64,000 nt of DNA from Chloroflexota bacterium (GTDB taxonomy: Bacteria; Chloroflexota; Anaerolineae; Anaerolineales; Villigracilaceae): NCBI GenBank assembly GCA_049324715.1, contig JBMOMR010000049.1:8026-72025 (forward strand), in the 5' to 3' direction. Position numbers and translations under genes: made by a program. The notes below the pieces were generated by a model. That model was not told where the DNA came from. It saw only the letters and a list, made by a program, of their open reading frames with translations, and ran no database searches. The number at the start of each line of letters is the position of its first letter. The stretch's first letter is position 1. Positions 17,852 to 33,171 of this stretch are shown one piece after another.

Positions 17852-18529
17852 TCATCCTAAACCAACCAGCCGCGACAACCCATCGTGGTCGGTGAGCACG
17901 AATTCAGTGCGGGTGACTTCGATCAGTTTCTTATCCGAGAAATTATATAACGCGCGGCAGACCATCTCGCGCGTCGAGCCGACGCGGGCGGCCATTTCAT
18001 CCAGCGTCAGGTTGCGCGAAATGGACGAGTCACCTGCCTGTTTGAAATGATCGAGCAGGAGGCGGGCGAGACGTCCAGCCACGGGCTGGAAGGCCAGACC
18101 CTCCACGAGGTCGCTGGCGCGCTGCATCCTTTCGGCCATCAGGCGGCTGAGTTCCCAGGATGCTTTTCCATTGCGGAGCAGGATCGGCAGGATGGTGGCG
18201 CGTGACCAAAGGTAAAGGTGACAATCCTCGCGCACTTCCAACGAAACGGGCATGGGCGCGTCCTCGTGGAAAAATGCCAATCCCCAGAAAACCTCCCCGC
18301 GCCCAAAATGACCCACGTGCAAGTTGCGTCCTTCCGAAGATTCTTTGATCGCCTCGATCACCCCGTCTGCAATCAACAACAAATACGGCCAGATGTCACC
18401 AAACAAAACCACCTTCTCCCCCTTTTGATAGTGATGCAAAGAGGCCGCCTGCTCCACCTGTTTCAAGTCCGATGGAGCGATAATTTGAAAGATGGGGTTC
18501 TCAGTCAGTAAGGTGGATAGTTCGCTCAT
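17852..18529 (-). CDS. Crp/Fnr family transcriptional regulator
   Basis: cNMP-binding beta-roll plus a C-terminal HTH (TLDEMAARVGSTREMVCRALYNF). Confidence 0.8.
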   Translation of the reverse strand: MSELSTLLTENPIFQIIAPSDLKQVEQAASLHHYQKGEKVVLFGDIWPYLLLIADGVIEAIKESSEGRNLHVGHFGRGEVFWGLAFFHEDAPMPVSLEVREDCHLYLWSRATILPILLRNGKASWELSRLMAERMQRASDLVEGLAFQPVAGRLARLLLDHFKQAGDSSISRNLTLDEMAARVGSTREMVCRALYNFSDKKLIEVTRTEFVLTDHDGLSRLVGLG

Positions 18530-19206
18530 CGCTCTGTGCCTCCTGCAAGGTTTTCCAGTTTCTCACGATCCAAAAAAGCGAATTCCACGCGGTTGACGCG
18601 GATCAGACCCTCGTCGGCGAAGCGGTGCAGGGTGCGGCTGACCAGCTCGCGGGTAGTCCCGACCGTATCGGCCATCTGGTCAAGGGTCAGGTTACGCGGC
18701 GCGGGTCTTCCATCCACAGGGTTGTAGTGAGTCAACAGCAGGCGCGCAAGGCGTCCCGCTACGGGGTGAAAGGCAAATCCATACACCACCTCGCGCACAT
18801 TGCGCATATAACGAATCAGGATATTGGAGACATCCCACGCGGCTTGCGCGTTCTTTTGGATGATGGGCAGGATCGCATCGCGTTCCCAAAGATAAAGCAC
18901 CGCGTCTTCGCGGACCTCGAGCGAGGCGGGCATCGAGAGGCCGTCTACCACCGAATGTCCCCAGACCACCTCGCAGGGACGGAGCGTGAACACCACCTGA
19001 CGACGGCCTTCGGGCGAGAGCATCGCCCACTCCAGCCGCCCCGAAGCGATATAGGCCACATACGGCCATTCCTCCCCCTGCCAGCAGACAAATTCATCTC
19101 TGCTGAATTTCTTTTCGGTTGCCTTCGCCACCAGTTCGGCGCGTTCACGTTCGGTCAACTTGGAAAAAACAGGTGCTTGCGAAAGGCATTCCAGGATATT
19201 GGGCAT
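18526..19206 (-). CDS. Crp/Fnr family transcriptional regulator
   Basis: Paralog of the adjacent regulator (…FHPVAGRLARLLL…NLTLDQMADTVGTTRELVSRTL); 4-nt overlap with the downstream gene. Confidence 0.8.
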   Translation of the reverse strand: MPNILECLSQAPVFSKLTERERAELVAKATEKKFSRDEFVCWQGEEWPYVAYIASGRLEWAMLSPEGRRQVVFTLRPCEVVWGHSVVDGLSMPASLEVREDAVLYLWERDAILPIIQKNAQAAWDVSNILIRYMRNVREVVYGFAFHPVAGRLARLLLTHYNPVDGRPAPRNLTLDQMADTVGTTRELVSRTLHRFADEGLIRVNRVEFAFLDREKLENLAGGTER

Positions 19207-19326
19207 GAACAGTCTCCAGACAAGTTATAAAAATGCAAAGACGGATTTACACCTTCATGATATTTTACTCATGCAAAAATCTCCTGCTTTGGCAGGTTCA
19301 TTATATCAACTTCAAGGAGAAGCAAA

Positions 19327-20331
19327 ATGAAGAACGAAACCACGAAGACTCAACGCATCATCATGACCATTGTGGCGGTTGTCGGCGGCTTGTACCTGAT
19401 GCTGTTGGCGCCCACCCAGGCCATGCAAACCCTGAAGATCGCGCTCGACCAGGTGCTCCTGCGCCTTGTGCCGCACGACGCGGATTTCTACCCCGCTGTA
19501 CCCGTTCTCTCGACCACGTTCTCAGCCTGGATCATCGCCTTCGTCTTTTCTGGCGCCATGCTGTTGGTGGTGGCGAAGAAACTCTACGACGGAGTGAAGT
19601 GGGCACGCGCCGCCGCGCTGGGACTGTTCGCCATCCCCTCGGTCGCGGGGATGACCATGATGATTCCCTGGTTCGTGCTGGTTCTGGCCGAATATCCTGA
19701 AAAGGGCGTCCCGCCGCATACCATCAACGGAATGCCACCCGCCATGCCGATCCTGTTCGTCAACCTGCTGTTCTACTTCATCATCCTGCTTGCGGATACT
19801 GACACGCTCAAGAACAAGGCGCTGAAACTTATCCCCTACACCGCGTTGGGAATCGTCTCTGGCATGGTCTTCATGAACGCACAGCACGGTGTGCGCTACT
19901 TCATCCACATCCCTGGCGAGTTCGTCACTGGTGCGGATGGTCTGATTGCCGCCAACCCCACCCCGCCTCCGTTCACGTCCGCGCTGGCGCATTACATCAC
20001 CAATCTCGATCATCTGGATTGGCAAACCTTTGAATTTGTTTCAGAAAAAGCCGTGTACAGCCCGCAAACGCTGGCGCTCCTGCTCGGCGGCTTTCTGCTC
20101 TACATTGCGTCCGTGCTGTTGATCGTCTCCATCCCACTGATGGCGATGAAGAACAAAGCGGGCTGGTACATCGCCACCGCCACCACACTGGCGACCGTCG
20201 TTGTCAGTTTCCAGGGCTTCATCGTGCGGCATTCCACCGAATGGCTGCAGGGCGGGATGCTATCCGCTGTGCTGTTGGCGATCCTGCTCATCCCCGCCTT
20301 CAAGCAATTCCTGATCGAAAAAGGCGAATAA
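19327..20331 (+). CDS. Polytopic membrane protein, paralog family A (A1)
   Basis: About 8 TM helices; the shared block AKKLYDGVKWARAAALGLFAIPSVAGMTMMIPW is also present in the 21224 and 22233 genes. Confidence 0.65.
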   Translation: MKNETTKTQRIIMTIVAVVGGLYLMLLAPTQAMQTLKIALDQVLLRLVPHDADFYPAVPVLSTTFSAWIIAFVFSGAMLLVVAKKLYDGVKWARAAALGLFAIPSVAGMTMMIPWFVLVLAEYPEKGVPPHTINGMPPAMPILFVNLLFYFIILLADTDTLKNKALKLIPYTALGIVSGMVFMNAQHGVRYFIHIPGEFVTGADGLIAANPTPPPFTSALAHYITNLDHLDWQTFEFVSEKAVYSPQTLALLLGGFLLYIASVLLIVSIPLMAMKNKAGWYIATATTLATVVVSFQGFIVRHSTEWLQGGMLSAVLLAILLIPAFKQFLIEKGE

Positions 20332-20410
20332 TCGCCCGATAAAATTATCCACATTCTCCTTTGTAAACTGGAGCCAGTCACCTGGCTCCAGTTTACTTTT
20401 TCACACACTG

Positions 20411-21100
20411 TTATTCCGCACCAGCAAGTCGCTCCAACGCCGCGCGATCATGGACGGTGATGGTGGCCCGTGTCACCTGGAGCAGGCCATTCTTTTGGAG
20501 CTGATAAAGGGAACGACAGACAACTTCGGGGGAGGAGGCCACCCTGGATGCGATCTGATCAAGAGTCAGATCACGCTGCGCCGAGTTCTCCGTGGCGGGG
20601 ACTTGTTCCAATAATAACTTTGCCACGCGACCCGTCACGGGCTGAAAGGCAAGGTCAGAAATCGTGTCCCGTCGCTTGCGAATCAATCTGGTCTGACGAG
20701 CCAATAAAGCGCGAATCGCTTCGGGGTTTTCAAACAGAATTTGGAGAACGGTCTCCCCCTCCCATTGATAAATTACGCTTTCTTGGGCAGCCTCCAGTGT
20801 AGACGGCGCGGGTTCCCCATCAAAAAGTCCGTGCGCCCAGAATACATCTCCCTTCTCCCAAGTAGAGACAACATAACTCCGCCCATCCGTCGAGCGAATG
20901 ACAGCCCGCAGTTGTCCCGATGCGATCAGAAATGCGTTTGTCCAGGGATCTCCCTGCCAGAAAAGTGATTGATCCCGTTCCAGGACGCGTCGAATGGCTA
21001 ATGAAACCAACCGCTGTTTTTGATTGGCGGTAAATTTTCCAAATACTTCGGTATTTTCCAACAAGGCATCCAGGTCGGACATGCTTCTGATCCTTTCCAA
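20411..21100 (-). CDS. Crp/Fnr family transcriptional regulator
   Basis: cNMP-binding domain plus HTH (LTLDQIASRVASSPEVVCRSLYQL); divergent from family-A gene A2. Confidence 0.8.
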   Translation of the reverse strand: MERIRSMSDLDALLENTEVFGKFTANQKQRLVSLAIRRVLERDQSLFWQGDPWTNAFLIASGQLRAVIRSTDGRSYVVSTWEKGDVFWAHGLFDGEPAPSTLEAAQESVIYQWEGETVLQILFENPEAIRALLARQTRLIRKRRDTISDLAFQPVTGRVAKLLLEQVPATENSAQRDLTLDQIASRVASSPEVVCRSLYQLQKNGLLQVTRATITVHDRAALERLAGAE

Positions 21101-21142
21101 TTATTAGAAACGTCACTTATTCTTGACAAATATCAAGGTGTG

Positions 21143-21156: not shown

Positions 21157-21223
21157 GATAACATATGTGCATGTCATCACAACCTGAACCCAGTTCAGGA
21201 AAAATTATAACATCGGAGGAAGA

Positions 21224-22108
21224 ATGTTATCTGCAACACCCCGTAATTCACGTCTCATCGTAATCACCCTCGTGGTGATCGCCGCGATCTTGATGATCGT
21301 GTGGGTACCCTTCATCGGGTTTGATATGTCCAACCCAATCGTCCAAGGTCAGCAGGCCCGCATCGAAAAGTTCAAGGCAGAGGGAACACCAGAGATGGCT
21401 GTTCAAGCCGCGCTCCTGGAGCTGACGGTCTGGCTGGTTTCTTTCTTCTATCCGTTTTGGAGTGTGCTTTCCGTGGTAGCCGGCGTTGCGCTATTGGTGA
21501 TTGCAAAAGACCTCTATAACGGAGAGAAATGGGCACGCGGACTCGCCTTGCTGTGCCTGTCAATCCCGTCCATGGGCGGCGCGTACATGATCGTGCCGTG
21601 GATGAATTTCGTCGGAAGCGTGCAGGGCGGATTCCCGCCCGCGGTCATCATCATGACGGTTGGCCTGATCCCGTACTTCGCCCTGTTGTTGCTCGAAAAA
21701 GGCGACTGGATGCAGAAGATTGTGGACTTCCTAGTCTTCCTGATGCTGGGCGTTATCTCCGCTGAATCCTTTGCCAACGGTCACGCGGCCTTCCGTATCC
21801 TGTATGGACACCCCAAGCGGCCTCTCTTTGCTGAGGGCATTTCCATCACTTACGTCGGCTGGCTGGGACTGTGGATCAGCGCGGCATTGACCATCGCGGC
21901 CATCTACCTGCTGGGCAATCGCAAACTCTCCGGATGGTATTATGCCTATATCGGCGCGTGGGTGGCCATTATCGCCGGCGGAGCCACGCACTATGTCCGC
22001 CACGCCACCAATGACTACCTCTACAACGTTTTGATGGGAGTGAGCCTTGTCGTCATGCTTCTCATCCCTGTTTTCAAGCAACGCCTGCTGAAAGAGTATT
22101 CAGGCTGA
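21224..22108 (+). CDS. Polytopic membrane protein, paralog family A (A2)
   Basis: Paralogous to 19327 and 22233 through the shared block AKDLYNGEKWARGLALLCLSIPSMGGAYMIVPW. Confidence 0.65.
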   Translation: MLSATPRNSRLIVITLVVIAAILMIVWVPFIGFDMSNPIVQGQQARIEKFKAEGTPEMAVQAALLELTVWLVSFFYPFWSVLSVVAGVALLVIAKDLYNGEKWARGLALLCLSIPSMGGAYMIVPWMNFVGSVQGGFPPAVIIMTVGLIPYFALLLLEKGDWMQKIVDFLVFLMLGVISAESFANGHAAFRILYGHPKRPLFAEGISITYVGWLGLWISAALTIAAIYLLGNRKLSGWYYAYIGAWVAIIAGGATHYVRHATNDYLYNVLMGVSLVVMLLIPVFKQRLLKEYSG

Positions 22109-22184
22109 GCACATTCTCCTTTGCAACTCGGGATCCAAATCGGGGTCCCGAGTTTGCTTTAAGGCAAAGATTTTACAAACCGCT

Positions 22185-22232: not shown

Positions 22233-23078
22233 ATGAAAGATACATCGCAAGCCAATCGTAATATCATGTCCGTTATTGCCATTGTAATCGGACTGGCAAT
22301 GGCCTATCTCATTCCGTTCCTGGTCCAAACATCACTGGAACGGGTATTGGTTCATTTGTCCGCACACATCAAGGCAGGGAATCCCACTTTCTCGAGTGGA
22401 TTGCCCATGTTTGACCTCTTCTACTCTGCTTGGCGGGCGCTCATCTTTGCGGGCGGCGCAGGCTTAATTGTCATCTCGCAGGAGATCAGAAAAGGCCGCG
22501 AGTGGACCTTTCCTCTTGCCCTGTCACTTTTTGCCCTGCCCTCCATCGGCGGCTTTTTCATGTTCCTGCCCTATGTGAGTTGGGTGCCTGGCTTCCCCCT
22601 TCCGATGGTTATCGCCTTCATTGGCCTGGCGGGTTATTGGGCGTTTATTTTCCTCCACCACGGCACAAAGGCGCAAAAATGGACGCGTTTTGCCGCGTTG
22701 ACCTTCATCGGCATGTTGGCCACACACGCCTTCACCATCGGCATCGGCGCGCAACGCACCATGGCAACCCGTCCCGGCTTCCCCATGTATCCAGATTTTA
22801 CGTGGTGGCTCTTCCGCTGGGCTGGCGAAGTGAACTGGGTGGCGGTCATCTTCCTGTTCATGTCCATTCCCCTGCTGGCGATGGGAAAGCGCCGCGGCTG
22901 GTGGATGGCGGTCATCTCAGCCATCACGATCCTGATGATCAACGTCCCAACGCAATTCATCCGCACGAAGACGCTGGACTACTTCTATGGAGCGCTGCTT
23001 GCCATCGGTGTGTTGGTTTTCACTCTCATTCCATATTTCAAAAAACAACTTTTGGAAGAAAAATCATCAGAGGCCTGA
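22233..23078 (+). CDS. Polytopic membrane protein, paralog family A (A3)
   Basis: Paralogous block REWTFPLALSLFALPSIGGFFMFLPY. Confidence 0.65.
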   Translation: MKDTSQANRNIMSVIAIVIGLAMAYLIPFLVQTSLERVLVHLSAHIKAGNPTFSSGLPMFDLFYSAWRALIFAGGAGLIVISQEIRKGREWTFPLALSLFALPSIGGFFMFLPYVSWVPGFPLPMVIAFIGLAGYWAFIFLHHGTKAQKWTRFAALTFIGMLATHAFTIGIGAQRTMATRPGFPMYPDFTWWLFRWAGEVNWVAVIFLFMSIPLLAMGKRRGWWMAVISAITILMINVPTQFIRTKTLDYFYGALLAIGVLVFTLIPYFKKQLLEEKSSEA

Positions 23079-23140
23079 TTTCAGGCGCATTCTCCTTTAG
23101 GACCTCCCCCTTGTGATACAAGGGGGAGGTAACTTCAACC

Positions 23141-23290
23141 ATGAAAATCAACCCACGCTACTACCCCTACATCATCCTTGCCGCGTATATGGTTTTCCTC
23201 CTGCTTGGCATCCTGCTTGGCTTCGGACCGGAACGCGGTGGCGAAGACGGCGGTCACGGTCTCCTATTGTTGAGGCAGGCTTGCGCATGA
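23141..23290 (+). CDS. Small (49 aa) single-TM protein, translationally coupled (ATGA) to the 4Fe-4S membrane protein
   Basis: Strong SD GGGGGAGGT about 10 nt upstream of the ATG; the hydrophobic helix YIILAAYMVFLLLGILLGF; its stop overlaps the next start. Not in the ORF track as a separate call, because the track merges this frame differently (23113 extension). Confidence 0.45.
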   Translation: MKINPRYYPYIILAAYMVFLLLGILLGFGPERGGEDGGHGLLLLRQACA

Positions 23291-24111
23291 CCACGAAAAC
23301 AGCCTCGCTTTCCAAAAGCCGACGCGTCATCCAGTGGCTGGCGGTGATCGGCACATTCCTGCTCGGACTGCGCCACATCATGCCAGGCGAAACCTCGCGC
23401 GGCGGGTCATTCGACTCGTTCTGTGCCTTCGGCGGGATCGAAACATTGTTTCCCTATCTTTTCAATGGAAGCGTGCTCAAATCCACCAACCTGCTCAACT
23501 TCTCGATCCTGACCGCCACGCTGGGCGTCGCGCTCGTGGCGGGACGCGCCTTCTGCGGCTGGCTGTGCGGACTGGGCGCGCTCCAGGATTTCGTCGCAGG
23601 ATGGACACGGAAACTTCTTGGCAAAAGACGTCACGTCCGCGGCAAAGCCAGCCAAACGATCCTGCCTCTGCGCCTGCCTTCCTCCATTGACCGCCCGCTG
23701 CGGTACGCCAAATATCTTGTGCTTGCGGTGATCCTGTTTGCCAGTCTCTACACGGTTTATCCGCCCCTGCGAGAGTTCTGTCCCGTGCGCGCCGTTTTCA
23801 GCCTGAAGATGACCGCGCTCCTGTGGCTGACGCTCGTCGTCTTTGTTGCAGGATCAATTTTGGTGGAACGCTTCTGGTGCAAATATCTATGTCCGCTCGG
23901 CGCGGCGCTGGCGCTCTTCAACAAAATTTCGCCCGTGCGGCTGGTCAGCAGTTCCACCTGTAACAACTGCGGACGTTGCGACATCGAATGTTCGATGGGC
24001 ATCGCAGATGTGCCAAACAATCTGGCCGATGCCGAATGTATCCGCTGTCTCGAATGTTTGGACACTTGCGCGCGCGACGGATCACTCGAATTAAAAGTGA
24101 TTACCAAGTAA
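23287..24111 (+). CDS. 4Fe-4S binding membrane protein (NapH/MauN-like polyferredoxin)
   Basis: TM helices with CxxC pairs and two C-terminal ferredoxin motifs, CNNCGRCDIEC and CIRCLECLDTC. Confidence 0.7.
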   Translation: MTTKTASLSKSRRVIQWLAVIGTFLLGLRHIMPGETSRGGSFDSFCAFGGIETLFPYLFNGSVLKSTNLLNFSILTATLGVALVAGRAFCGWLCGLGALQDFVAGWTRKLLGKRRHVRGKASQTILPLRLPSSIDRPLRYAKYLVLAVILFASLYTVYPPLREFCPVRAVFSLKMTALLWLTLVVFVAGSILVERFWCKYLCPLGAALALFNKISPVRLVSSSTCNNCGRCDIECSMGIADVPNNLADAECIRCLECLDTCARDGSLELKVITK

Positions 24112-24144: not shown

Positions 24145-24858
24145 ATGACCACTGGCCTGCCTCCCGCTCCCCAACATTTTACTCGGCTGAAAGCGCTCCT
24201 CGCCCGAATCCGCCACTTTGACGGAATCCCACCCGAGGTCCAGGAAAGAATCGCCGCGTCTGCATCCCCGCGTCACTTCGCGGCGGGACAGGTCATCTAC
24301 ATCGAAGGTGAACCCGCAGAGGCGCTTTACCTGCTGGAACGCGGCTGGGTGAAAGCCACGCGCATGTCACGCGACGGGCGCGAGCAGGCGATGTTGTTTC
24401 TCGAGTCGGGGGAAATCTTCGGCGATATCGCCGTGTTCAGCGGCACAACCTACCCTGGCACGGTGGTGGCGCTCGAAGACGTGGACGTGTGGACAATCCC
24501 CGCTGACAATTTTTTGGAGTTGACCAAACAATATCCCGCGCTGGCGATGGCGGTCATCCGTCACCTGAGCGGCCGCGTGCTGCACTACATCAGTCTGGTC
24601 GAAGACCTGTCCCTGCGAAATGTGGAGGCGCGGCTAGCGAACACGCTATTACAGCACGCCGAAGCGCGCGAAGGACAATTGATCGTCCCCCGCCGTGACT
24701 GGACAACGTTCGATGAAATGGCCGTGCGACTCGGGACGGTGCGCGATGTGTTGAGCCGCGGGCTGAAGACGCTCGAAGCGGATGGATTGCTCAAGGTGGA
24801 GAAGCAGGCTATCGTCCTGCTCGACCCGAAAGGTCTGGCGGAACGCGGCAAATTGTGA
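24145..24858 (+). CDS. Crp/Fnr family transcriptional regulator
   Basis: cNMP-binding domain (GEIFGDIAVFSG) plus HTH (TFDEMAVRLGTVRDVLSRGLKTL). Confidence 0.8.
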   Translation: MTTGLPPAPQHFTRLKALLARIRHFDGIPPEVQERIAASASPRHFAAGQVIYIEGEPAEALYLLERGWVKATRMSRDGREQAMLFLESGEIFGDIAVFSGTTYPGTVVALEDVDVWTIPADNFLELTKQYPALAMAVIRHLSGRVLHYISLVEDLSLRNVEARLANTLLQHAEAREGQLIVPRRDWTTFDEMAVRLGTVRDVLSRGLKTLEADGLLKVEKQAIVLLDPKGLAERGKL

Positions 24859-24942: not shown

Positions 24943-25209
24943 ATGACCAACCCTTCCGCCTCAAACCTGGACGAAAAACTGCGCGCTACCATCCTGTCCC
25001 GTTTCGCGGCGGATGAGCGCACCGCCTACGCCAACTTGCGCGTGGGTGTGCTGAACAGGATCGTCCACCTGGCGGGCGTAGTGAATTCCATCGAGACGCG
25101 CGTCCTCGCGGCGGAACTGGCCGAGGAGACGGAGGGGGTACGCGGCGTGGTCAACCGCATCGAAGCGCCAGGTGCGCCCAGCCCTGCGCGGAGGATTGAT
25201 CTCACGTAG
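24943..25209 (+). CDS. BON domain protein (OsmY-like)
   Basis: LRVGVLNRIVHLAGVVNSIETRVLAAELAEETEGVRGVVNRIEA is a BON-domain pattern. Confidence 0.65.
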   Translation: MTNPSASNLDEKLRATILSRFAADERTAYANLRVGVLNRIVHLAGVVNSIETRVLAAELAEETEGVRGVVNRIEAPGAPSPARRIDLT

Positions 25210-25290
25210 CACCGCAAGATTTGATTTATCATGCGCCTTCACAGGCAACATGAAGTTGCGGTACTGAATAAAATCATCAAGGAGAATGAA

Positions 25291-26106
25291 ATGAAAAACA
25301 ACCACAAACTCGGAGCCTTTCTTGCCATACTTGGATTTGCCGCAGGCCTCCTGTGTCTGTATTTCATCGCCGACACATACAACGCCGTCATTCACACCCA
25401 CTTCAACGCGGGTGATTGGGAGGAGAGCAACACTGTCCGCATTGTGTACGCGGTGCTTGGCTGGCTGGGGACGGCGGCTGGCGCGCTCTCTTCCGCGGTG
25501 TTGTGGGGATTCCTACACAAACAGGATTGGGCCTGGTTCTGGGGCGCGGTGGCCGCGACCGTCCTCCTGCTGGCGGGATTCTTCCCGATGATCCCCGCCG
25601 CGGATAGTGGACTGCCCGTCCCGACGATGTGGGTCTTTCTGCTGGCCGCCGTGATGTGGTTCGGCATGTTGTTCGTCGGCGGCGTGAGTGGCAAGGTCAT
25701 CACACTGACATTCGTCGCGGGGCTGGCATACGTGCTGACGTTCATTGACGGGGTCGCGCCCATCTCCAAATTCCAAAGCACCTTCCAGACGCCGACAACG
25801 TTCGCTGAGAACGCGAACACGTTCTGGAATGGACTGTACGTTCTTTCGCAACAGGTGAATTGGTGGGGAGCGGCGGCCTGGGCGGTCTTTATTTTCGCGG
25901 CGCTCAAGCAAAAATCGTGGGCGATACCCATTGGCATCTTTGCCGCGGTCATGTCCATGATCGGTGGATATCCGATGGGCATCCATAACGTGGCGGAAGT
26001 CCAGCGCTTCTCGATGTTCCTCCCCGCGCCCATCCTGAGTACAGTATTACTGATCGTGCTTTTACTTCCCAGCACACAAAAGTTGCTAGAGAGCAAACAA
26101 TCCTGA
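25291..26106 (+). CDS. Polytopic membrane protein, paralog family B (B1)
   Basis: SD AAGGAGA 5 nt upstream of the ATG; about 65% identical to the 26123 gene (ARWAWFWG.VAATV..LAGFFP.IP...GLP.PT.WVFL). Confidence 0.65.
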   Translation: MKNNHKLGAFLAILGFAAGLLCLYFIADTYNAVIHTHFNAGDWEESNTVRIVYAVLGWLGTAAGALSSAVLWGFLHKQDWAWFWGAVAATVLLLAGFFPMIPAADSGLPVPTMWVFLLAAVMWFGMLFVGGVSGKVITLTFVAGLAYVLTFIDGVAPISKFQSTFQTPTTFAENANTFWNGLYVLSQQVNWWGAAAWAVFIFAALKQKSWAIPIGIFAAVMSMIGGYPMGIHNVAEVQRFSMFLPAPILSTVLLIVLLLPSTQKLLESKQS

Positions 26107-26122: not shown

Positions 26123-26914
26123 ATGAAAGGAAACAACAAGTTAGGGACAGTCCTGTCCATCGTCGGCATCCTGACTGGACTGCTGGTCCTGTTCCTGATG
26201 GCAAGCATCTATCAGGTCAATATTGACGGCAAACTGGCAGGGGAACGTCCCGACGAGGCCATCACAGTGCAGATCGTTTTTGCCCTGCTGGGCTGGCTGG
26301 GGGTTGCCGCGGGAGCCTTGTGGGTGATGGTCTTGTACGGCTTCCTGAACAACGCAAGATGGGCCTGGTTCTGGGGGACGGTGGCCGCCACGGTCCAGAT
26401 TTTGGCGGGATTCTTCCCGATCATCCCACCCTCCAGCATCGGCCTGCCCGCGCCGACCATCTGGGTGTTCCTGATCGCGTTCGTGCTTTGGTTCGGGATG
26501 CTCGTCATCGGCGGCGTGGACAAGAAGATTATCGCGCTGGCCTTCGTCAGCGGGCTGGCGTATGTGCTGACGTTCATTGATGGCGTCGGCGCGATCTCGC
26601 GTCACCAGACCGAGGCGAAGGGTTTCATCAGTTCGATGTACGCCATGTCGCAGATGGTGAACTGGTGGGGCGCGGCGGTTTGGGCGTCCTTTATCTTCGG
26701 GCTGGTGAAGGGTAAATCGTGGGCGCTGCCCGTCGGCGTCTTTGCGGCGGCCATGTCCATGTTTGGCGGATTCCCCGTCGGTGTGACGGATGTGATCGTG
26801 AAGGGCCGATTCTCGATGTTCCTGGTCGCGCCCGTCATGAGCACGGCGTTGCTCGTCTACTTGTTGCTCCCGTCCACGCGGAAGATGATCGAAGCGTGGA
26901 ATGCGGCGTCGTAG
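26123..26914 (+). CDS. Polytopic membrane protein, paralog family B (B2)
   Basis: Tandem paralog of B1; only a 16-nt spacer separates them. Confidence 0.65.
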   Translation: MKGNNKLGTVLSIVGILTGLLVLFLMASIYQVNIDGKLAGERPDEAITVQIVFALLGWLGVAAGALWVMVLYGFLNNARWAWFWGTVAATVQILAGFFPIIPPSSIGLPAPTIWVFLIAFVLWFGMLVIGGVDKKIIALAFVSGLAYVLTFIDGVGAISRHQTEAKGFISSMYAMSQMVNWWGAAVWASFIFGLVKGKSWALPVGVFAAAMSMFGGFPVGVTDVIVKGRFSMFLVAPVMSTALLVYLLLPSTRKMIEAWNAAS

Positions 26915-26925: not shown

Positions 26926-26980
26926 AGTACCGCAACATTCATCTCGCGCATCACAGGCAACATGAATGTTGCGGTACTGG
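26926..26980. promoter_or_regulatory. Inverted repeat with 18-nt arms (CAGTACCGCAACATTCAT / ATGAATGTTGCGGTACTG); a degenerate copy sits upstream of B1 at about 25222-25266
   Basis: Perfect 18-nt arms around a 19-nt spacer; the copy CACAGGCAACATGAAGTTGCGGTACTG occurs upstream of the family-B start. Confidence 0.55.
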
Positions 26981-27040: not shown

Positions 27041-27056
27041 TGTGATAAATGTCACA
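27041..27056. promoter_or_regulatory. Perfect CRP-type box TGTGATAAATGTCACA
   Basis: TGTGA-N6-TCACA lying 62 nt upstream of the C1 start codon. Confidence 0.6.
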
Positions 27057-27117
27057 GAAATTGGACACGTCTTGTGCAACAATTCACTTAAGTCCAACAA
27101 AAAAGGAGAATGCACAA

Positions 27118-27726
27118 ATGGCACCAATCAAAGACATCATCTTCCTGCTCTTGACGGGCGGCCTCGCCGCCTACCTCTGCTGGTATTTTTGGCAGAGGTA
27201 CAATTTGCACAAGGCACTGCACAACATCTACTATCTGATGGGGTTTGCAGTGCTTTTGGTTTCGGGACTGCTGTTGATCTTCCTCGGCCTCGACATCCTT
27301 GCTTCGCCCTACGTGCTGACCGTGGCCAGCCTGATCCCGCTCGGCATCTCGATGGGACTGGCTGAGGAGTACTTCCCCGCCTGGAAGAAGTATTTCAAGT
27401 GGTTCGCGTTGATCGGCTTCCTCGCCATCGCGGTGACCAGCATCGGCGGGATGGACTCGCTGAAGAAGATCGCCGTTCCGCTCTTCCACGGCGTGGCGGG
27501 ACTCGTGATCTTCCTCGGACCGTTCCTGGCGAAGGGCGCGCCGAAGGGCTTCTACTGGGTCGGAATCGGCGGCGTGCTGATCGGCCTCGGCGGCATTGCG
27601 CTGGCCTTCATTTCGGTCGGCGCGCAGTTGCTGTTCTTCAGCCCTGAGTTCGTCATGCTGATCCTCACCCCACTCCTGTTCCTGATGGCGGGCGCGTTCA
27701 CGCTCGGTTTCACCCGCAAAGGGTAA
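27118..27726 (+). CDS. Polytopic membrane protein, paralog family C (C1)
   Basis: RBS AAAAAGGAGAATGCACAA precedes the ATG; paralogous to the 31370 gene (GGVLIGLGGIALAF vs GGALIGIGGLALSF). Confidence 0.6.
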   Translation: MAPIKDIIFLLLTGGLAAYLCWYFWQRYNLHKALHNIYYLMGFAVLLVSGLLLIFLGLDILASPYVLTVASLIPLGISMGLAEEYFPAWKKYFKWFALIGFLAIAVTSIGGMDSLKKIAVPLFHGVAGLVIFLGPFLAKGAPKGFYWVGIGGVLIGLGGIALAFISVGAQLLFFSPEFVMLILTPLLFLMAGAFTLGFTRKG

Positions 27727-27823: not shown

Positions 27824-27921
27824 CGCTCTTCCCGCAATCATTTGTCTTTTGTCAAAGACAGCCAGCCCGATTTGTGATATTTTTCAGCAGACTGACAACA
27901 ATCCATTTAGGAGTACATCCT

Positions 27922-29457
27922 ATGCAATTTGTCAAAGACCGTTTCGATTATCTCTTCCGTTCCACGCGCGGGCTGACCTTGGTCGCCATTGCGGTGGTTT
28001 CCATCATTACCGCCATTTTCGGAACGCTTTCTGGCCCAATGGTGGAGTGGGGCATCAAAGACATCACCGTGCGCGTGCTCGGTTTGAAACTGGTCGAGGC
28101 AGACCGTGAGGGACGCATCATCATGCTCTACCACACGATCGCCATGACCATCACCGCCATCGAAGTCTATTTCATGACCGAGATTCTGCCGATGAAACGT
28201 CACGAACAGACGATCATCAACGGGACGATCACTGTCGGGTACCTGACAGCAGCCATCTTCGGCCTGCTCTTTGCCTACTGGGGACACAACTTCATCTTCC
28301 ACGGGCTGTTTCTGGTCGGACAGTCGTTGGTTTTCTTCGCGGGTATTTTGCTGACTGTGGCACTCAACCCCTGGAAGAAAGAATACCGACTGGATAAAGA
28401 CTCGCCTCATGCCCGTTCCAAGGGCGGCATGGACCTGGAACGCCTGGCGTTCTTCGTCATGGCGATTGCCATGTTGGTCTCTGCCACCTTCGGCGCTGTG
28501 ACAGGCTCATTCTGGGGCAACGGTCACGAGACCTTCCTCGGCGAAGACCTGATTCGTATGCCACATAAGACCGAGTTACAGAAAGCCATCATCGGCCACC
28601 TGCACATTATGCTCACCCTGCTGGCTGTGGGCATCACGCTCATCGTGGGACGCTGGGTCAAATTCAAGGGCGTCCTGCAAAAGATCGCCATGCCGCTGAT
28701 GGTCATCGGTATCATCGGCACCACCGCAGGAGCGCTCTCGGTGGTCTGGTTGGAATGGGCGCATACCATCATCTATGTCGGCTCGACCTTCATCATGCTG
28801 TCGGCGTTGATGTACGTCATTTATTCCTGGGACATGCTCATCAAGGAAGGCACGGCGGGTATTCAGAAGCCGAACTTCTTCCAGAAGATTGGCGCGTTGC
28901 TGCGTGACCCGCTCAAGTTCGGGCCTGGCTGGCAAATGGTCTTCATGAACTTTACGGTCAGCGGCGTGGGCATTTTCATGGCGGTCAAACTGGAGGAGAT
29001 CTTCCGCGTCTGGCCCCACCGCGAGGAACGCATCACCCTGACGGGACACTGGCACATCCTCTCGGGGCTGATCGCCACTATCATCCTGATGTACTTCGCC
29101 GACCTCTCGGGCTTGAAAGGCAAAGTCCGCAAGTGGTTCGGCTGGGCCATTATCCTCCTCTCCGACGTTGCCTTCGGCTCCGCCACCGTTTTCTCGATGA
29201 AGCGCCTCTTTGTGGACGAGATCAACCAGCAGGGCATCGTCAACACCACCATGCTCCTCATGGATCTGGGGTTGGGCATCCTTCTCGTTGCATTGGCGAT
29301 CTTCATGATCTGGAGGTTATACGACTTGCTCCAAAAGAAAGGCCACTGGTCCATGGAATATGCGGCGGAGCGCAAGACCAACGCCGAGGCGGAACTCGCG
29401 GAACAGAAACGCAAAGCCGAGGAACTCAACGCCATTTTGAAGGAGGTGTCGAAATGA
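27922..29457 (+). CDS. Large polytopic (about 12 TM) membrane protein with a C-terminal coiled coil; function unknown
   Basis: RBS AGGAG; 12 hydrophobic segments; C-terminal EAELAEQKRKAEELNAILKE; ATGA-coupled to the downstream FGE-like lipoprotein. Confidence 0.6.
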   Translation: MQFVKDRFDYLFRSTRGLTLVAIAVVSIITAIFGTLSGPMVEWGIKDITVRVLGLKLVEADREGRIIMLYHTIAMTITAIEVYFMTEILPMKRHEQTIINGTITVGYLTAAIFGLLFAYWGHNFIFHGLFLVGQSLVFFAGILLTVALNPWKKEYRLDKDSPHARSKGGMDLERLAFFVMAIAMLVSATFGAVTGSFWGNGHETFLGEDLIRMPHKTELQKAIIGHLHIMLTLLAVGITLIVGRWVKFKGVLQKIAMPLMVIGIIGTTAGALSVVWLEWAHTIIYVGSTFIMLSALMYVIYSWDMLIKEGTAGIQKPNFFQKIGALLRDPLKFGPGWQMVFMNFTVSGVGIFMAVKLEEIFRVWPHREERITLTGHWHILSGLIATIILMYFADLSGLKGKVRKWFGWAIILLSDVAFGSATVFSMKRLFVDEINQQGIVNTTMLLMDLGLGILLVALAIFMIWRLYDLLQKKGHWSMEYAAERKTNAEAELAEQKRKAEELNAILKEVSK

Positions 29458-30404
29458 AACGGACACTCTTCATCCTGGCCCTGCTTGCGCTGACTCTCGC
29501 CGCCTGCGGAAACGCTCCAAGCGTTGGTTCCATCACGCCTCCTTTCATAGACCCTGGAATTGACCCCGAATCCTGGGCCACTGTCCCTGCTGGTGAATTC
29601 CCCTACGGCCAGCACGACCACATGACGATGGTGGATTACGATTACGAGATCATGGTCACCGACGTGACCAACGAACAGTATGCCCGCTTCCTGAACGCGG
29701 CCCTGACCGACGGGACCGTCAAAGTCGGCGAAGTGGAAGTGGAGGCAGGCGAACAGATCTGGCACGAGACGGGCGTGCATGGCGCGTACCCTGGCGATCC
29801 CTTCGACGGCTACGAGCACGAAGAGGAGATCAGGGCTGGCGACAAACTCTACGCCCCCACCCAGGTGGAGGGCCTGCGCCTGACCTTTGACGGCGCGCAA
29901 TTTACCGCCATCTACGAGTATGGCAACCACCCAATGACAATGGTCACTTGGTTCGGCGCGAACGCCTACTGCCAATATTACGGTTGGCGTTTGCCGACCG
30001 AGATCGAATGGGAAAAAGCCGCGCGCGGCACCGAACTGGTGAACGGTCACGGCCTGCCCTACCCCTGGGGCGAGCACATCGAACGCAACAATGCCAACTA
30101 CTACTCGTCCTTCGACCTGTTCGAGAAGATGTTCGGAAAACTCGGCAATACCACGCCCGTCGGATTCTTCAATGGCAAGACCTACGACGGCTACACAACC
30201 CTCGACTCCGCCTCGCCCTATGGTTTGTACGACATGGCGGGCAACGTCTGGCAATGGACAGGCGACGACTATCCCGACCAGCACTACCGTATGTTGCGCG
30301 GCGGTAGTTTCTACACCTACGAAGTGGACCTGCGCGTCTGGAAGAACAACTCGGCTGGGCCGCAGTATTACAGCCCCCAAGTCGGCTTCCGTTGCGTGAG
30401 GTAA
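29454..30404 (+). CDS. FGE/SUMF1-family lipoprotein, non-catalytic variant (NirV-like)
   Basis: Lipobox LAACG. FGE motifs are present: GWRLPTEIEWEKAARG, LYDMAGNVWQW, RGGSF…GFRCV. There is no Cys pair between RGGS and GFRC, so it is not predicted to be a catalytic FGE. Confidence 0.7.
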   Translation: MKRTLFILALLALTLAACGNAPSVGSITPPFIDPGIDPESWATVPAGEFPYGQHDHMTMVDYDYEIMVTDVTNEQYARFLNAALTDGTVKVGEVEVEAGEQIWHETGVHGAYPGDPFDGYEHEEEIRAGDKLYAPTQVEGLRLTFDGAQFTAIYEYGNHPMTMVTWFGANAYCQYYGWRLPTEIEWEKAARGTELVNGHGLPYPWGEHIERNNANYYSSFDLFEKMFGKLGNTTPVGFFNGKTYDGYTTLDSASPYGLYDMAGNVWQWTGDDYPDQHYRMLRGGSFYTYEVDLRVWKNNSAGPQYYSPQVGFRCVR

Positions 30405-30482
30405 AATTGAGAGAGCAGAGAGTAGAGAACAGTCACTATCTCTACTCTCTAATTATCTACTCTCTCGCTTTAGGAGTTCCCC

Positions 30483-31370
30483 ATGACCACCGCCACCCAA
30501 TCGTCAATCGCAAATCGCAAATCAAAAATTTCCCACTACTGGCCGCTCACCAAACCCCTGCAAACAGGCTTGCTCCTCGCAACAGGTTTGGCTGGTTACA
30601 TGAGCGCACGTTGTCCCGTCTTCAACATCGGGACGTTCCTCGGCGTGGCGGGAAGTCTCTTCCTCGCCATCGCGGGGAGCACCGTGCTCAACATGTGGTG
30701 GGACCGCGACATCGACGCGAAAATGGGGCGCACCCAAAAGCGCGCCACCTCTTCGGGACAGGTGACTGAAAACGAAGTCCTGCGTCTCGGCTTGATCCTG
30801 TCAGTGCTGGGCGTTGGCTGGGCGGTGGCGATTGACGCGCTCTACGGGCTGATCGTCTTTGCAGGTCTCTTCTTTGATGTGGTCGTTTACTCCATCTGGC
30901 TCAAGCGCCGCACGGCGTGGAGCATCGTCTGGGGCGGCGTTTCGGGTGCCATGCCCATTCTGGCAGGCCGCGCTCTCGGTCTCGGTTACGTGGACTGGAT
31001 CGGCCTGACGCTCGCTCTCGGCATCCTCTTCTGGATCCCCACCCACACCCTCACCTTCAGCATGAAGTTCGCCAAAGACTACGCCGCGGCCTGCGTTCCC
31101 ACCTTCCCATCCACGTATGGACTCGGATTCACCCGCGCCACCATCGCGGTCTCATCGGTGCTGGCCGCGCTGGCAATGGTCATCGCTGGCTACGGCATCG
31201 GCATGGACTGGGGCTTCCTGCGCCTGCTCGGTGTGCTGTCTGCGGGCCTGCTCTTGCTGGCCGTGGCTATCACCTTCAAGCCCTCCGAGCGCGTCAACTT
31301 CGGCCTGTTCAAGTACGCATCCATCTATATGCTGGCTGCGATGATTTTGGTTGTTATCGAAGTAATGTAA
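30483..31370 (+). CDS. UbiA-family prenyltransferase, heme O synthase (CtaB/CyoE)-like
   Basis: NMWWDRDIDAKMGRTQKR resembles the CtaB NxxxDxxIDxxMxRTxxRP motif; about 8 TM helices. Confidence 0.6.
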   Translation: MTTATQSSIANRKSKISHYWPLTKPLQTGLLLATGLAGYMSARCPVFNIGTFLGVAGSLFLAIAGSTVLNMWWDRDIDAKMGRTQKRATSSGQVTENEVLRLGLILSVLGVGWAVAIDALYGLIVFAGLFFDVVVYSIWLKRRTAWSIVWGGVSGAMPILAGRALGLGYVDWIGLTLALGILFWIPTHTLTFSMKFAKDYAAACVPTFPSTYGLGFTRATIAVSSVLAALAMVIAGYGIGMDWGFLRLLGVLSAGLLLLAVAITFKPSERVNFGLFKYASIYMLAAMILVVIEVM

Positions 31371-31975
31371 TGAAAATGTCCCCCCTCGACCGCGTCCTCC
31401 TCCTCGTCACTGGCCTGCTTGCCGCGTATCAAGTGGCGGTGGGCATAGACGGCTTCGGCGCGGTCCCCATCATCGCTTACACCATCGCCTTCGGTGTCCT
31501 GCTCGTGGCGGGACTCCTGCTCATCATCTGGGGCTTCGACGTGTTGGATTCGCCCGTGGTGGTCATCGTCTCGACGGCCATCCCGCTCTCCATCTCATTG
31601 GGACTCGTCTGGCAGTACCTCGTTTCATTTCGGACCTCGTACCTGGTCTTCGCCATTTTGGGTTTCCTCGCCGTGACGTTGACCCGCTCGATCCCCACCC
31701 CTGGCAAAATCCCCACCATCATCCTCGCCCTTGTCCACGGCATCGCGGGCATGACGATCTTCCTGCTCCCCATCCTCTTCTCCGTCCAGGGGATGACCCA
31801 GCCGCTCTTCTCCCTCGTCGGCGTGGGCGGCGCGCTGATCGGCATCGGCGGGCTGGCGCTGTCCTTCCTCAAGGCAGGCAAACCCATCCTCTCGAAAGAA
31901 CTGATCCTGAAGATCCTGCCCGTCATCCTGTTCCTGATGACACTCTGCTTCGTAATTGGTTTCAAGTATGGATAA
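31370..31975 (+). CDS. Polytopic membrane protein, paralog family C (C2)
   Basis: Its start overlaps the UbiA stop (TAATG); paralogous to C1; the listed ORF 30917..31975 is an upstream extension in the same frame. Confidence 0.55.
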   Translation: MKMSPLDRVLLLVTGLLAAYQVAVGIDGFGAVPIIAYTIAFGVLLVAGLLLIIWGFDVLDSPVVVIVSTAIPLSISLGLVWQYLVSFRTSYLVFAILGFLAVTLTRSIPTPGKIPTIILALVHGIAGMTIFLLPILFSVQGMTQPLFSLVGVGGALIGIGGLALSFLKAGKPILSKELILKILPVILFLMTLCFVIGFKYG

Positions 31976-32453
31976 GACGCAAGTCCTCTCGTATCTCGCC
32001 CATCTCAAATCCTTTCGCGGCGAGTTGAAGAAAAGCCGCTACAAGATCTGGCTGCGCGCCTTCCTGCTGGTCCAATTCTCGGCACTGTTTTGTATCTATT
32101 TCGTTCGCGACATCGGCAACGGATATTTCAGTTGGACGCGTGTTCTGGAAGTGTTCGCCTGCTTCATCCCAGTCGGATTCCTGCTGAGTCTCATTGTCCC
32201 CATGAAAGCGGACGTGGAACTCGGCGCGGTTACCCTCTCGCTCGACCGCTTCTACCTCTTCCTGATCTGGTTTCTGGTCATCGCCAAACTCATCATCGGA
32301 CGCATCCCATTCTTCACCCCTGAAGCGGACTTCATCATGTCGGCCATCATCGGCATCATGTTCGGCAGGCTGGGAGGCATCGGGCTGAGAGTTCGGCAAT
32401 TGAAAGTGCAATATGGTTTCATAAAAAGACAAAACTCAACAGGTCACGCATAA
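31956..32453 (+). CDS. Hypothetical four-TM membrane protein
   Basis: Overlaps the C2 end; hydrophobic helices; the likely start is 31968 (MDKTQ). Confidence 0.45.
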   Translation: MVSSMDKTQVLSYLAHLKSFRGELKKSRYKIWLRAFLLVQFSALFCIYFVRDIGNGYFSWTRVLEVFACFIPVGFLLSLIVPMKADVELGAVTLSLDRFYLFLIWFLVIAKLIIGRIPFFTPEADFIMSAIIGIMFGRLGGIGLRVRQLKVQYGFIKRQNSTGHA

Positions 32454-32487
32454 GGCGTGGCCTATTTTTTCTCAAAAGGAGAATGCA

Positions 32488-33171
32488 ATGTCCCACAACA
32501 GTTTCTTCGCAAAATCCCTCCGTTTCATCGGCATCGTGCTGATGGCGCTCACGGGCGGATTTACCCTGCTGGGCGGCGTTGGCACGTCCTGCGTCGCCAT
32601 CAGTCCCACAGGCTTCGGCGAAAGCATGGCCCCGCTGGCAAAACTCCAGTGGTTGTACATCCTGTTCGTGCTGGCAGGGATCACCATCGGCGTGCTGGGC
32701 ATCCGCGCCACCATCGCGCTCATCAAAGGCGCGGACAAGTCCTACCGCGACGCGTTGTACGCCTTGATCGCGGGTGTGGTGGTCGGGTTCGTCCATATCT
32801 TCGTCTCACGCGCCCTGCGCGGCAAATCCATGCCCGTGGACGCGGTGGTGTACACGACCGTCCTCACGCTGGTCATCTTCCTGCTCTTCAAGATCCCCGC
32901 CATCTGGCAGGGCGTGGACTTTGCCAAGGCCAAAGCGGAGAAGAACAAACCCGCGGGCGGCGCGGCGGCCATCCTGCTCGGCCTCCTGACGCTCACCATC
33001 CAATACACAATGGGGCCCACTCACACCTGGGACAACGTCAACTATGCGGACGCCTTCAACCTGTCCATGACGGGGATTGGGATTGGATTGTTGCTCCTCG
33101 GCGCGGCGGTATTCGTTCCGTGGCGAGCGCTTCTTCTATTCCGAAGGAATGGAATGATTGTAAAGGCATAA
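32488..33171 (+). CDS. Polytopic membrane protein with a family-C-like RBS and N-terminus (C3)
   Basis: RBS CAAAAGGAGAATGCA precedes the ATG, the same motif as upstream of C1; the L(M/L)TGG N-terminal helix resembles C1. Confidence 0.5.
   Translation: MSHNSFFAKSLRFIGIVLMALTGGFTLLGGVGTSCVAISPTGFGESMAPLAKLQWLYILFVLAGITIGVLGIRATIALIKGADKSYRDALYALIAGVVVGFVHIFVSRALRGKSMPVDAVVYTTVLTLVIFLLFKIPAIWQGVDFAKAKAEKNKPAGGAAAILLGLLTLTIQYTMGPTHTWDNVNYADAFNLSMTGIGIGLLLLGAAVFVPWRALLLFRRNGMIVKA

Follow-up and report, generated by a model that had tools for sequence, protein, structure and literature searches.

A recurring Chloroflexota gene cluster with four Crp/Fnr regulator genes and a probable divergent relative of the heme-copper oxidoreductase catalytic subunit

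We analysed a 64,000-nucleotide stretch of DNA (the window) from contig JBMOMR010000049.1 of a Chloroflexota bacterium of the order Anaerolineales (assembly GCA_049324715.1). Between positions 17852 and 33171, the window carries a cluster in which four Crp/Fnr regulator genes are interleaved with genes for polytopic membrane proteins, among them a 12-helix protein of 511 amino acids (aa) whose gene is followed by those of a lipoprotein with the formylglycine-generating enzyme (FGE) fold and of a heme O synthase. Aerobic respiration and the reduction of nitric oxide (NO) depend mainly on heme-copper oxidoreductases (HCOs), and we consider it probable that the locus is built around an unrecognised, very divergent relative of their catalytic subunit. 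The 12-helix protein is therefore called HCO-like below.

Gene content of the cluster

The genes and putative control elements of the cluster are as follows; boxes are given without strand.

17852 to 18529, minus strand: Crp1, Crp/Fnr regulator of 225 aa (Pfam cNMP_binding and HTH_Crp_2), recognition helix TREMVCR
18526 to 19206, minus strand: Crp2, Crp/Fnr regulator of 226 aa (Pfam cNMP_binding and HTH_Crp_2), divergent from A1
19327 to 20331, plus strand: A1, membrane protein of the A/B superfamily, 334 aa (BLASTP to A2 E 4e-26, to A3 E 4e-24)
20411 to 21100, minus strand: Crp3, Crp/Fnr regulator (Pfam), likely start ATG at 21082, divergent from A2
21166 to 21181: CRP-type box TGTGCATGTCATCACA with 1 mismatch, 43-58 bp 5' of the A2 ATG
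21224 to 22108, plus strand: A2, A/B superfamily, 294 aa, eight helices
22185 to 22200: perfect CRP-type palindrome TGTGATACCTTTCACA, 33-48 bp 5' of the A3 ATG
22233 to 23078, plus strand: A3, A/B superfamily, 281 aa (BLASTP to A2 E 2e-33)
23141 to 23290, plus strand: small open reading frame (ORF) of 49 aa with a single helix, read from the sequence
23287 to 24111, plus strand: NapH/NosR/CcoG-type Fer4_5 membrane protein with two [4Fe-4S] clusters (Pfam Fer4_5 E 1.6e-17)
24145 to 24858, plus strand: Crp4, Crp/Fnr regulator of 237 aa (Pfam cNMP_binding and HTH_Crp_2), the most divergent of the four
24943 to 25209, plus strand: BON-domain protein, 88 aa (Pfam BON E 4.4e-12)
25291 to 26106, plus strand: B1, A/B superfamily, 271 aa, 56% identical to B2
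26123 to 26914, plus strand: B2, A/B superfamily, 263 aa, tandem duplicate of B1 (BLASTP)
27041 to 27056: perfect CRP-type palindrome TGTGATAAATGTCACA, 62-77 bp 5' of the C1 ATG
27118 to 27726, plus strand: C1, C-family membrane protein, 202 aa, about seven helices, 42% identical to C2
27844 to 27859: palindrome GTCTTTTGTCAAAGAC, centred about 70 bp before the HCO-like ATG, candidate class II activator site
27873 to 27888: TGTGATATTTTTCAGC, CRP-like half site or extended -10 element in the promoter of the HCO-like gene
27922 to 29457, plus strand: HCO-like 12-helix membrane protein, 511 aa, NCBI MFZ5857118.1 ('hypothetical'), assigned by fold match
29454 to 30404, plus strand: FGE-fold lipoprotein, 316 aa, lipobox Cys18 (Pfam FGE-sulfatase E 2.5e-38)
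30483 to 31370, plus strand: heme O synthase of CtaB/CyoE type, a UbiA protein of 295 aa (TIGR01473 214.6 bits)
31370 to 31975, plus strand: C2, C-family membrane protein, 201 aa (BLASTP to C1)
31956 to 32453, plus strand: D, four-helix membrane protein of about 160 aa, unrelated to A, B and C
32488 to 33171, plus strand: 32488 protein, membrane protein of five to six helices, 227 aa, with conserved C35, H103 and H179

ORF listing and profile searches recovered every gene of the original prediction where it had been placed: Pfam finds both cNMP_binding and HTH_Crp_2 in each of the four Crp/Fnr paralogues, and the NapH-like Fer4_5 protein, the BON protein, the FGE-sulfatase lipoprotein and the UbiA protein were all found by profile search. 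The 49-aa ORF at 23141-23290 had been missed, and the true start of the NapH-like gene is 23287. At three junctions in the window the stop codon of one gene overlaps the start codon of the next, as seen from exact matches to deposited proteins or from the sequence. The HCO-like and FGE genes share an ATGA, in keeping with the coupling predicted for them, as do the small ORF and the NapH-like gene, and the C2 start overlaps the heme O synthase stop. The Crp1 and Crp2 genes overlap by 4 nt. Five cluster proteins are exact matches to those of one NCBI Chloroflexota metagenome-assembled genome (MAG; ACOYZ6_09770 to ACOYZ6_09815 and the adjacent FGE gene), where four are recorded as 'hypothetical' and the fifth as an FGE-family protein.

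The HCO-like protein and its partner genes

A word-index search found 3,180 homologues of the 12-helix protein among 8,000 scored candidates. The best 120 of these, nearly all 511-513 aa long, are 76-95% identical to it, an exceptional degree of conservation; their sources are many MAGs of Anaerolineales and a single one of Ignavibacteriae. In a library of 50%-identity representatives the family occupies 338 clusters, and public labels for its members read hypothetical or are mislabels as MFS or MscL.

The AlphaFold2 model of the protein has a predicted TM-score of 0.75 and a mean predicted local distance difference test score (pLDDT) of 70. In a fold search with this model all ten best matches are subunit I of HCOs, at 6-12% sequence identity, and the next match of a different fold scores 10.7. 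The top match in Foldseek, Thermus ba3 subunit I, has probability 1.0 and TM-score 0.56 with a weak E-value of 4e-3. The HCO-like protein is thus modelled with the twelve-transmembrane-helix core fold of HCO subunit I.

Profile comparison approaches the same relationship from the sequence side. A comparison by hhalign with single sequences of E. coli CyoB, S. meliloti NorB and FixN was uninformative. Against an A-family HCO profile composed of E. coli CyoB, S. aureus QoxB and three CtaD sequences, the HCO-like family gave a near-global alignment with a score of 34.0 (E 3e-3); on the same scale, S. meliloti NorB and FixN score 40-41 (probability 40-48%), and an MFS transporter and NnrS, taken as negatives, 15-21. 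The family therefore appears to lie at or just past the limit of sequence detection, and the alignment that emerges is apparently the chemically meaningful one. NnrS, a 12-helix protein of denitrifiers that contains heme and copper, was itself considered as the identity of the 12-helix protein and ruled out, with no match to Pfam PF05940 and an hhalign probability of 0.2% (score 16) against S. meliloti NnrS.

That alignment places H227, H282, H377 and H379 of the window protein on H284, H334, H419 and H421 of CyoB. In a family alignment that reaches down to 23% identity and includes the archaeal members, H128, H227, H229, H282, H377, E209 and R363 are invariant and H72 and H379 nearly so. In the model, H72 lies about nine residues into helix 2, H128 on helix 4, H227 and H229 on helix 6 (GHLHIM), H282 at the helix 7/8 junction, and H377 and H379 on helix 10 (GHWHIL); if the basic N-terminus is cytoplasmic, all of the conserved histidines would lie in the outer third of the membrane. 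The family thus resembles HCO subunit I (cbb3 CcoN, cNOR NorB, bo3 CyoB) in its helix VI histidine, its helix VII/VIII histidine and the helix X H-x-H of the HCO heme ligands, which H377/H379 match. The linear spacing 72, 227/229, 282, 377/379 likewise resembles that of CcoN from P. stutzeri (60, 207, 257/258, 345/347) and NorB from P. aeruginosa (60, 207, 258/259, 347/349), in the numbering of the published structures. The family differs in three respects from the HCO canon: one CuB histidine is lost, a second histidine, the invariant H229, is gained on helix 6 two residues past the helix VI ligand, and H128 on helix IV is extra. The canonical CuB/FeB layout of one helix VI histidine and an HH pair is therefore absent, and three histidines would be available in a different arrangement. 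Four residues after H282, all members of the bacterial clade carry Y286, which could in principle serve as a crosslinked tyrosine.

The UbiA protein scores 214.6 bits on TIGR01473, above the equivalog cutoff of 210.3, and is 29% identical to E. coli CyoE (E 3e-17), so that the cluster resembles E. coli cyoABCDE in containing its own heme O synthase gene (cyoE). The original prediction had left the 12-helix protein and the 'CtaB-like' gene unlinked; the HCO subunit I fold of the one and the invariable linkage of the other would together explain the locus. Profile searches of the cluster detected no gene for a cupredoxin, a cytochrome c or a heme A synthase, and in place of a cupredoxin or cytochrome c subunit, as found in HCO complexes, the partner is the FGE-fold lipoprotein. 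Its only cysteines are the lipobox Cys18, one in the sequence ANAYCQ and one in a terminal GFRC; the catalytic cysteine pair is absent, the closest relative with a solved structure is SUMF2, an inactive paralogue, and no alignment to true FGE extends into the catalytic segment. The partner is for these reasons more likely to be structural than catalytic. It shares the lack of the catalytic pair in an FGE-sulfatase domain with SUMF2/pFGE and PorK/GldK, and differs from these non-catalytic proteins in being a lipoprotein, in its translational coupling to the HCO-like gene and in an occasional fusion with the HCO-like protein, as in one representative protein of 785 aa (P0242). In gene context it is like NirV of nirK operons, where an FGE-fold gene also stands beside that of a respiratory metalloenzyme.

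The NapH-like protein combines a Fer4_5 domain with a C-terminal two-cluster ferredoxin motif and has 14 cysteines, and in this it resembles NapH, the C-terminal part of NosR and CcoG; it nevertheless scores far under every equivalog cutoff (NapH 88.8 bits against 213, NosR 67.6 against 1000, CcoG 29.1 against 317). Small genes of 46-53 aa occupy the position of the 49-aa ORF in related loci L033, L034, L038 and L039, and genes of 150-163 aa that of D in L034, L036 and L038. Genes for copper handling also occur near the cluster: a CopD-domain protein is encoded 5 kb upstream of it (12635-13144), and in L036 a P-type ATPase and an HMA chaperone gene (L036:16705-18840) lie 5 kb downstream, accompanied by two further Crp genes.

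A scan of species-representative genomes yielded 32 related loci (430 kb), mostly from MAGs of Anaerolineales and other Chloroflexota; a few are binned as Bacteroidota, Chlorobiota or Planctomycetota, the last probably wrongly, and with so many MAGs some of the taxonomic labels may be binning errors. Among the loci with enough flanking sequence, the partners were found as follows.

Heme O synthase downstream of the HCO-like gene: 25 of 25 loci
FGE lipoprotein downstream of the HCO-like gene: 27 of 27 loci (24 by script; 3 over-extended ORF calls by inspection)
C-family gene downstream of the HCO-like gene: 20 of 24 loci
C-family gene upstream of the HCO-like gene: 16 of 23 loci
A/B member in the locus: 14 of 20 loci
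Any Crp gene in the locus: 10 of 16 loci
NapH-like gene in the locus: 7 of 16 loci
BON gene in the locus: 7 of 18 loci

Orthologues of the 32488 protein lie downstream in 14 of 21 loci, and the NapH-like gene, with its 7 of 16, is therefore accessory. The full order recurs in L038 (Crp, Crp, A1, Crp, A2, A3, small ORF, NapH, Crp4, BON, B, HCO-like, FGE, heme O synthase, C2, D) and, with variations, in L033, so that the arrangement goes beyond chance. In L033 (complete genome CP129480.1) a cd1 nitrite reductase gene (Cytochrom_D1 and cytochrome c domains; L033:1-371) adjoins three Crp genes (L033:530-2689). A 509-aa protein without a family, encoded between two A genes of the same locus, was suspected to be an HCO-like paralogue and found to be unrelated. 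DUF1858 genes lie near the cluster in L036 and L038.

A search that started from a distant representative recovered HCO-like proteins from Hodarchaeales, Kariarchaeaceae, Heimdall-, Thor- and Odinarchaeota, and shorter forms from Anaerolineae. On the Hodarchaeales and Heimdallarchaeota contigs, the HCO-like gene lies between a membrane protein gene (221-224 aa) and a UbiA gene. The 221-aa neighbour of Hodarchaeales is a C-family homologue (hhalign 99.2%, E 2.3e-19, in a comparison that covered this one neighbour), and the Asgard UbiA neighbours score 202.7 and 208.4 bits on TIGR01473, just under the 210.3 cutoff. Since these three genes are all that the bacterial and Asgard loci share, the conserved core is by gene content C, HCO-like and heme O synthase, with FGE, A/B, NapH, BON and Crp as bacterial additions. 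The proposal that the module is lineage-specific does not hold: besides many Anaerolineales, Asgard archaea have the core, and so do MAGs that were assigned by binning to Bacteroidota, Chlorobiota and Ignavibacteriae. Both Asgard loci encode a regulator of the HxlR family a few genes upstream of the trio (L040:3531-3971, L041:6660-7079) and lack Crp regulators. A short Anaerolineae form stands alone among genes for hemerythrin, ferredoxin, AhpC, nitroreductase and hybrid cluster protein.

Regulators, operators and small membrane proteins

Crp1 and Crp2 are 41% identical and Crp3 is 34-36% identical to both (BLASTP). The nearest solved relatives of Crp2 are M. tuberculosis CRP and GlxR-type proteins (E 1e-11), with Dnr weaker, and that of Crp4 is the GlxR-type regulator 3r6s (E 9e-26); for the cluster regulators, Dnr (3dkw) ranks under the CRP/GlxR-type proteins. 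The four proteins contain 2, 3, 1 and 0 cysteines and no N-terminal FNR cluster, and Crp1 and Crp2 have a CRP-like R-E-x-x-x-R recognition helix. Together with boxes of the CRP type, TGTGA-N6-TCACA, these features speak against the assignment as Dnr/NnrR-type regulators that had been made for them; among solved structures the relationship is closest to actinobacterial CRP/GlxR. The likeness extends to domain architecture, nearest solved relatives and conserved operator palindromes. It ends at the R-[ST]-A phosphate-binding motif for cyclic nucleotides, which on reading the sequences is absent from all four, at the presence of four paralogues in one locus, and at a second operator, GTCTT-N6-AAGAC.

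Across the window TGTGA-N6-TCACA is not above chance, with 4 sites against 1.7 expected. In the related loci, 53 sites with at most one mismatch compare with about 11 expected and 19 perfect ones with about 0.4, and most lie 20-135 bp upstream of A1, A2, A3, C1 or HCO-like starts. It is this conservation at orthologous promoters, together with two perfect sites at promoters of the cluster, that makes the motif convincing. The site upstream of A2 has an orthologous site in L002, the A3 site is kept before A3 orthologues in L002, L003, L004, L009 and L020, and sites upstream of C1 occur at the matching place in 13 of the 32 related loci. The FNR-type box TTGAT-N4-ATCAA is not enriched (one in the cluster, 3 in the window against 2.4 expected).

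The GTCTT-N6-AAGAC palindrome was found only at the promoter of the HCO-like gene, where 9 related loci match it at every position, the spacer among them, and 3 more have one mismatch. One-mismatch versions of the element at 27873 lie 40-48 bp upstream of HCO-like orthologues; if TGTGATATTTT at this position serves as an extended -10, the palindrome centre would fall near -41, a class II activator position. Two operator types and four paralogues suggest that a single enzyme system receives several inputs. Other genomes likewise have Crp genes divergent from an A/B gene, which makes the A/B genes the likely primary targets.

The original prediction had recognised three paralogue families among the small membrane proteins. 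Paralogy within A (A1, A2 and A3 mutually 24-27% identical, E 4e-24 to 2e-33), within B (B1 and B2 56%, E 2e-102) and between C1 and C2 (42%, E 2e-21) is borne out by BLASTP, and the separation of A from B is not. Profiles were built for A, B, C, D and the 32488 protein from alignments of the window with the 32 related loci; those of A and B align with an hhalign probability of 99% (E 2.7e-17, 304 columns), and on this comparison the two are one superfamily. The same profile-profile comparison detected no relation of C, D or the 32488 protein to A/B or to each other. The 32488 protein had been put forward as a probable third C member, and this was wrong since neither BLASTP nor hhalign detects similarity to C1 or C2. 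By these comparisons the A/B superfamily has five paralogues in the locus and family C has two, and the small membrane proteins at 31956 and 32488 stand apart as unrelated. That A, B and C lack an obvious assignment stands: no transporter or other curated family was matched in Pfam or NCBIfam, even at an E of 5. D and the 32488 protein likewise match no curated family, and the sole trace of one in the whole set is a faint DUF7144 signal in A2, B1 and B2. The A2 model (pLDDT 91.4, eight helices) gave partial helical-bundle matches and no full-length match in the PDB, and the family C profile found nothing there. C and D show no similarity to CyoC, and for C a kinship with CyoC, which had been considered, was ruled out on this ground. 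The L002 orthologue of A1 is 92% identical to it.

Several smaller observations concern the same genes. B1 and B2 are 74-76% identical in nucleotides over long stretches (25528-25969 against 26360-26771), far above other paralogue pairs, which suggests a recent duplication or gene conversion. In one related genome a DDE_5 transposase gene (L034:8530-9996) replaces C1 between B2 and the HCO-like gene, and the C1 promoter region appears to tolerate insertion. A repeat of 27-28 nt, CACAGGCAACATGAA(T)GTTGCGGTACTG, with a small hairpin lies 5' of B1 (25241-25267) and just 3' of B2 (26952-26979), the latter copy inside a longer hairpin. Five copies of the 11-mer CATTCTCCTTT are present in the window, where 0.03 would be expected. 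Its plus-strand copies (20352-20362, 22112-22122 and 23088-23098) lie 4-21 nt past the stops of A1, A2 and A3 and are followed by a hairpin; its minus-strand copies (27102-27112 and 32475-32485), which read AAAGGAGAATG, serve C1 and the 32488 gene as ribosome-binding sites, and the site of B1 is similar. The 3' untranslated regions of the A genes therefore exactly complement those ribosome-binding sites. Their motif, CAUUCUCCUUU, also resembles the anti-Shine-Dalgarno tail of 16S RNA, and it is kept after A orthologues in L002, L004, L007, L009, L017 and L020.

Further downstream, positions 36057-42488 of the window have a GC content of 0.44-0.48 against about 0.57 elsewhere. The five genes of this stretch encode a fusion of TIR and FGE-sulfatase domains (36057-37343, minus strand), which is the second FGE-fold protein of the window, a PHP-domain protein, a 614-aa protein without a family, a protein of the SPFH/Band 7 type and one with an S24 peptidase domain. 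Apart from the TIR domain nothing here matches models of defence systems, and the stretch may be a defence or mobile island.

A heme-dependent reductase and its alternatives

Recurring gene order, the fusion of HCO-like and FGE proteins and the overlapping genes together point to one membrane complex, which would be a membrane reductase of the HCO kind with farnesylated heme and copper or iron. In the HCO-like protein, H72 and the helix X pair H377/H379 would ligate two hemes, one low-spin and one high-spin, and H227, H229 and H282 would coordinate a second metal (Cu or Fe), in a rearrangement of the one-plus-two histidine site of the canon. Farnesylated heme would come from the adjacent heme O synthase, and the FGE-fold lipoprotein would take the place of a cupredoxin or cytochrome c subunit II at the outer face. 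The C-family proteins, and probably D and the 32488 protein, may be small membrane subunits or assembly partners; the NapH-like protein may pass quinol electrons outward or, like CcoG, reduce Cu(II) for assembly. With neither cytochrome c nor cupredoxin present, the enzyme is probably fed by menaquinol. The four CRP-type paralogues would govern separate promoters, with the A/B paralogues as their closest targets.

Several observations weigh against a relationship to HCOs. No sequence method reaches significance against them: Pfam COX1 (PF00115) is absent from the window protein and from 23 diverse members at E up to 10, searches of Pfam, NCBIfam and the PDB (phmmer and hmmsearch) gave no match, and the hhalign probability against the A-family profile is only 10%. 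The structural model is of only moderate confidence, built on a shallow alignment and with four segments below a pLDDT of 50. The helix II histidine H72 is offset by seven residues from CyoB H106 in the profile alignment, the position of CyoB H333, the first histidine of the CuB pair, is alanine, and the histidine geometry is judged from alignment and helix assignment. Y286 is confined to the bacterial clade and is asparagine in the Asgard-related and short clades. The FGE partner has no recognisable cofactor site for electron entry and is missing from the Asgard loci. The context clues to a substrate also conflict, with nirS in one genome, Hcp, hemerythrin and AhpC near the short form and HxlR in the Asgard loci.

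The pLDDT, the Foldseek E-value of 4e-3 and the lack of sequence-level significance would equally suit a fold match that is an artefact of modelling, in which case the locus would be a membrane module that responds to stress and performs no redox chemistry, with an unrelated transporter or sensor as its 12-helix protein. This we regard as very unlikely, as the invariant histidines occupy the helices and membrane depth of HCO ligands and four of them align exactly, a control comparison with another 12-helix protein scores far lower, and a transporter gives no rationale for the linkage to heme O synthase. No more credible to us is a role of the C, HCO-like and heme O synthase trio in modifying, storing or delivering heme O (or a heme A-like cofactor), with the HCO-like protein as scaffold or heme-modifying enzyme. 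Such a role would account for heme O synthase and the C protein being the only partners common to bacteria and Asgard archaea, for the missing electron-donor subunit and for the absence of a heme A synthase gene from the cluster, whereas the fold and the retained binuclear-site histidines match a catalytic subunit I and not known heme A synthases, the 76-95% identity among the best homologues fits a catalytic core, and known oxidase operons such as cyoABCDE also carry heme O synthase.

For a divergent HCO relative, the substrate is the less certain part. Reduction of oxygen, in scavenging or in respiration in low-oxygen habitats, is the function we favour, at somewhat below even chances, on account of the dedicated heme O synthase, the H282/Y286 pair of the bacterial clade and the neighbours of an oxidant-stress type. 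Reduction of NO, by an NO reductase of a denitrification or NO-detoxification regulon, is our second choice and rather unlikely; it is considered because cNOR gives a nearly equal fold score, nirS is adjacent in a single case and the archaeal clade lacks the tyrosine, so that the crosslinking residue required for O2 reduction is not shared by the whole HCO-like family. It would also agree with the hybrid cluster protein and hemerythrin genes near the short form and the DUF1858 genes in L036 and L038, and known new NO reductase families likewise tolerate altered active-site ligands (PMC11214002). Against it, nirS adjoins the Crp genes in that one genome, CP129480.1, and was seen in none of the other loci whose gene tables were read, the remaining loci being unscreened; the regulators are nearer to CRP/GlxR than to Dnr, and nor accessory genes are absent. 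The heme O synthase is moreover invariably linked, whereas cNOR and qNOR are known to use heme b only. Of the redox or N-oxide responsive respiratory locus first proposed, a respiratory-type module under Crp/Fnr control thus stands, and the N-oxide link comes down to a single genome.

The new families eNOR, sNOR, gNOR and nNOR offer a close precedent, with an origin in environmental sequences, non-canonical ligands (one active-site histidine is replaced in gNOR) and no crosslinking tyrosine; they are described as close B-family relatives that encode homologues of a CuA-type subunit II (Murali et al. 2024, PMC11214002), and the HCO-like family has neither that closeness nor that subunit. That 2024 survey of new HCO families does not mention the HCO-like family, a 2025 preprint on Asgard terminal oxidases has canonical CyoABCD only, and a literature search, thin on subscription journals, found no description of it. 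The system thus seems to follow HCOs in fold and cofactor logic and to depart from them in sequence membership, active-site layout and partner subunits. More tentatively, and with the chances against it, the family could be a deep, undescribed sister branch of all HCOs, defined by an H-x-H on helix VI with one helix VII/VIII histidine, its own heme O synthase and family C, in which an FGE subunit replaces subunit II in bacteria.

The family tree of HCOs underlies arguments on when respiration of oxygen and N-oxides arose. If the relationship holds, a family that is invisible to current profiles and has thousands of near-invariant members would extend this tree and contribute a novel layout of the active site as well as a novel type of partner subunit, and current gene-centric surveys of oxygen or NO metabolism would miss its genes. 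The locus also presents a compact natural system of regulation, in which four CRP-type paralogues are combined with two types of operator and five target genes that are themselves paralogous. Anaerolineales are found in digesters, sediments and the subsurface, and oxygen tolerance in Asgard archaea is a live question for eukaryogenesis; the HCO-like family could give supposed anaerobes, including relatives of the lineage of the eukaryotic host, a way of consuming O2 or NO that has gone unrecognised.

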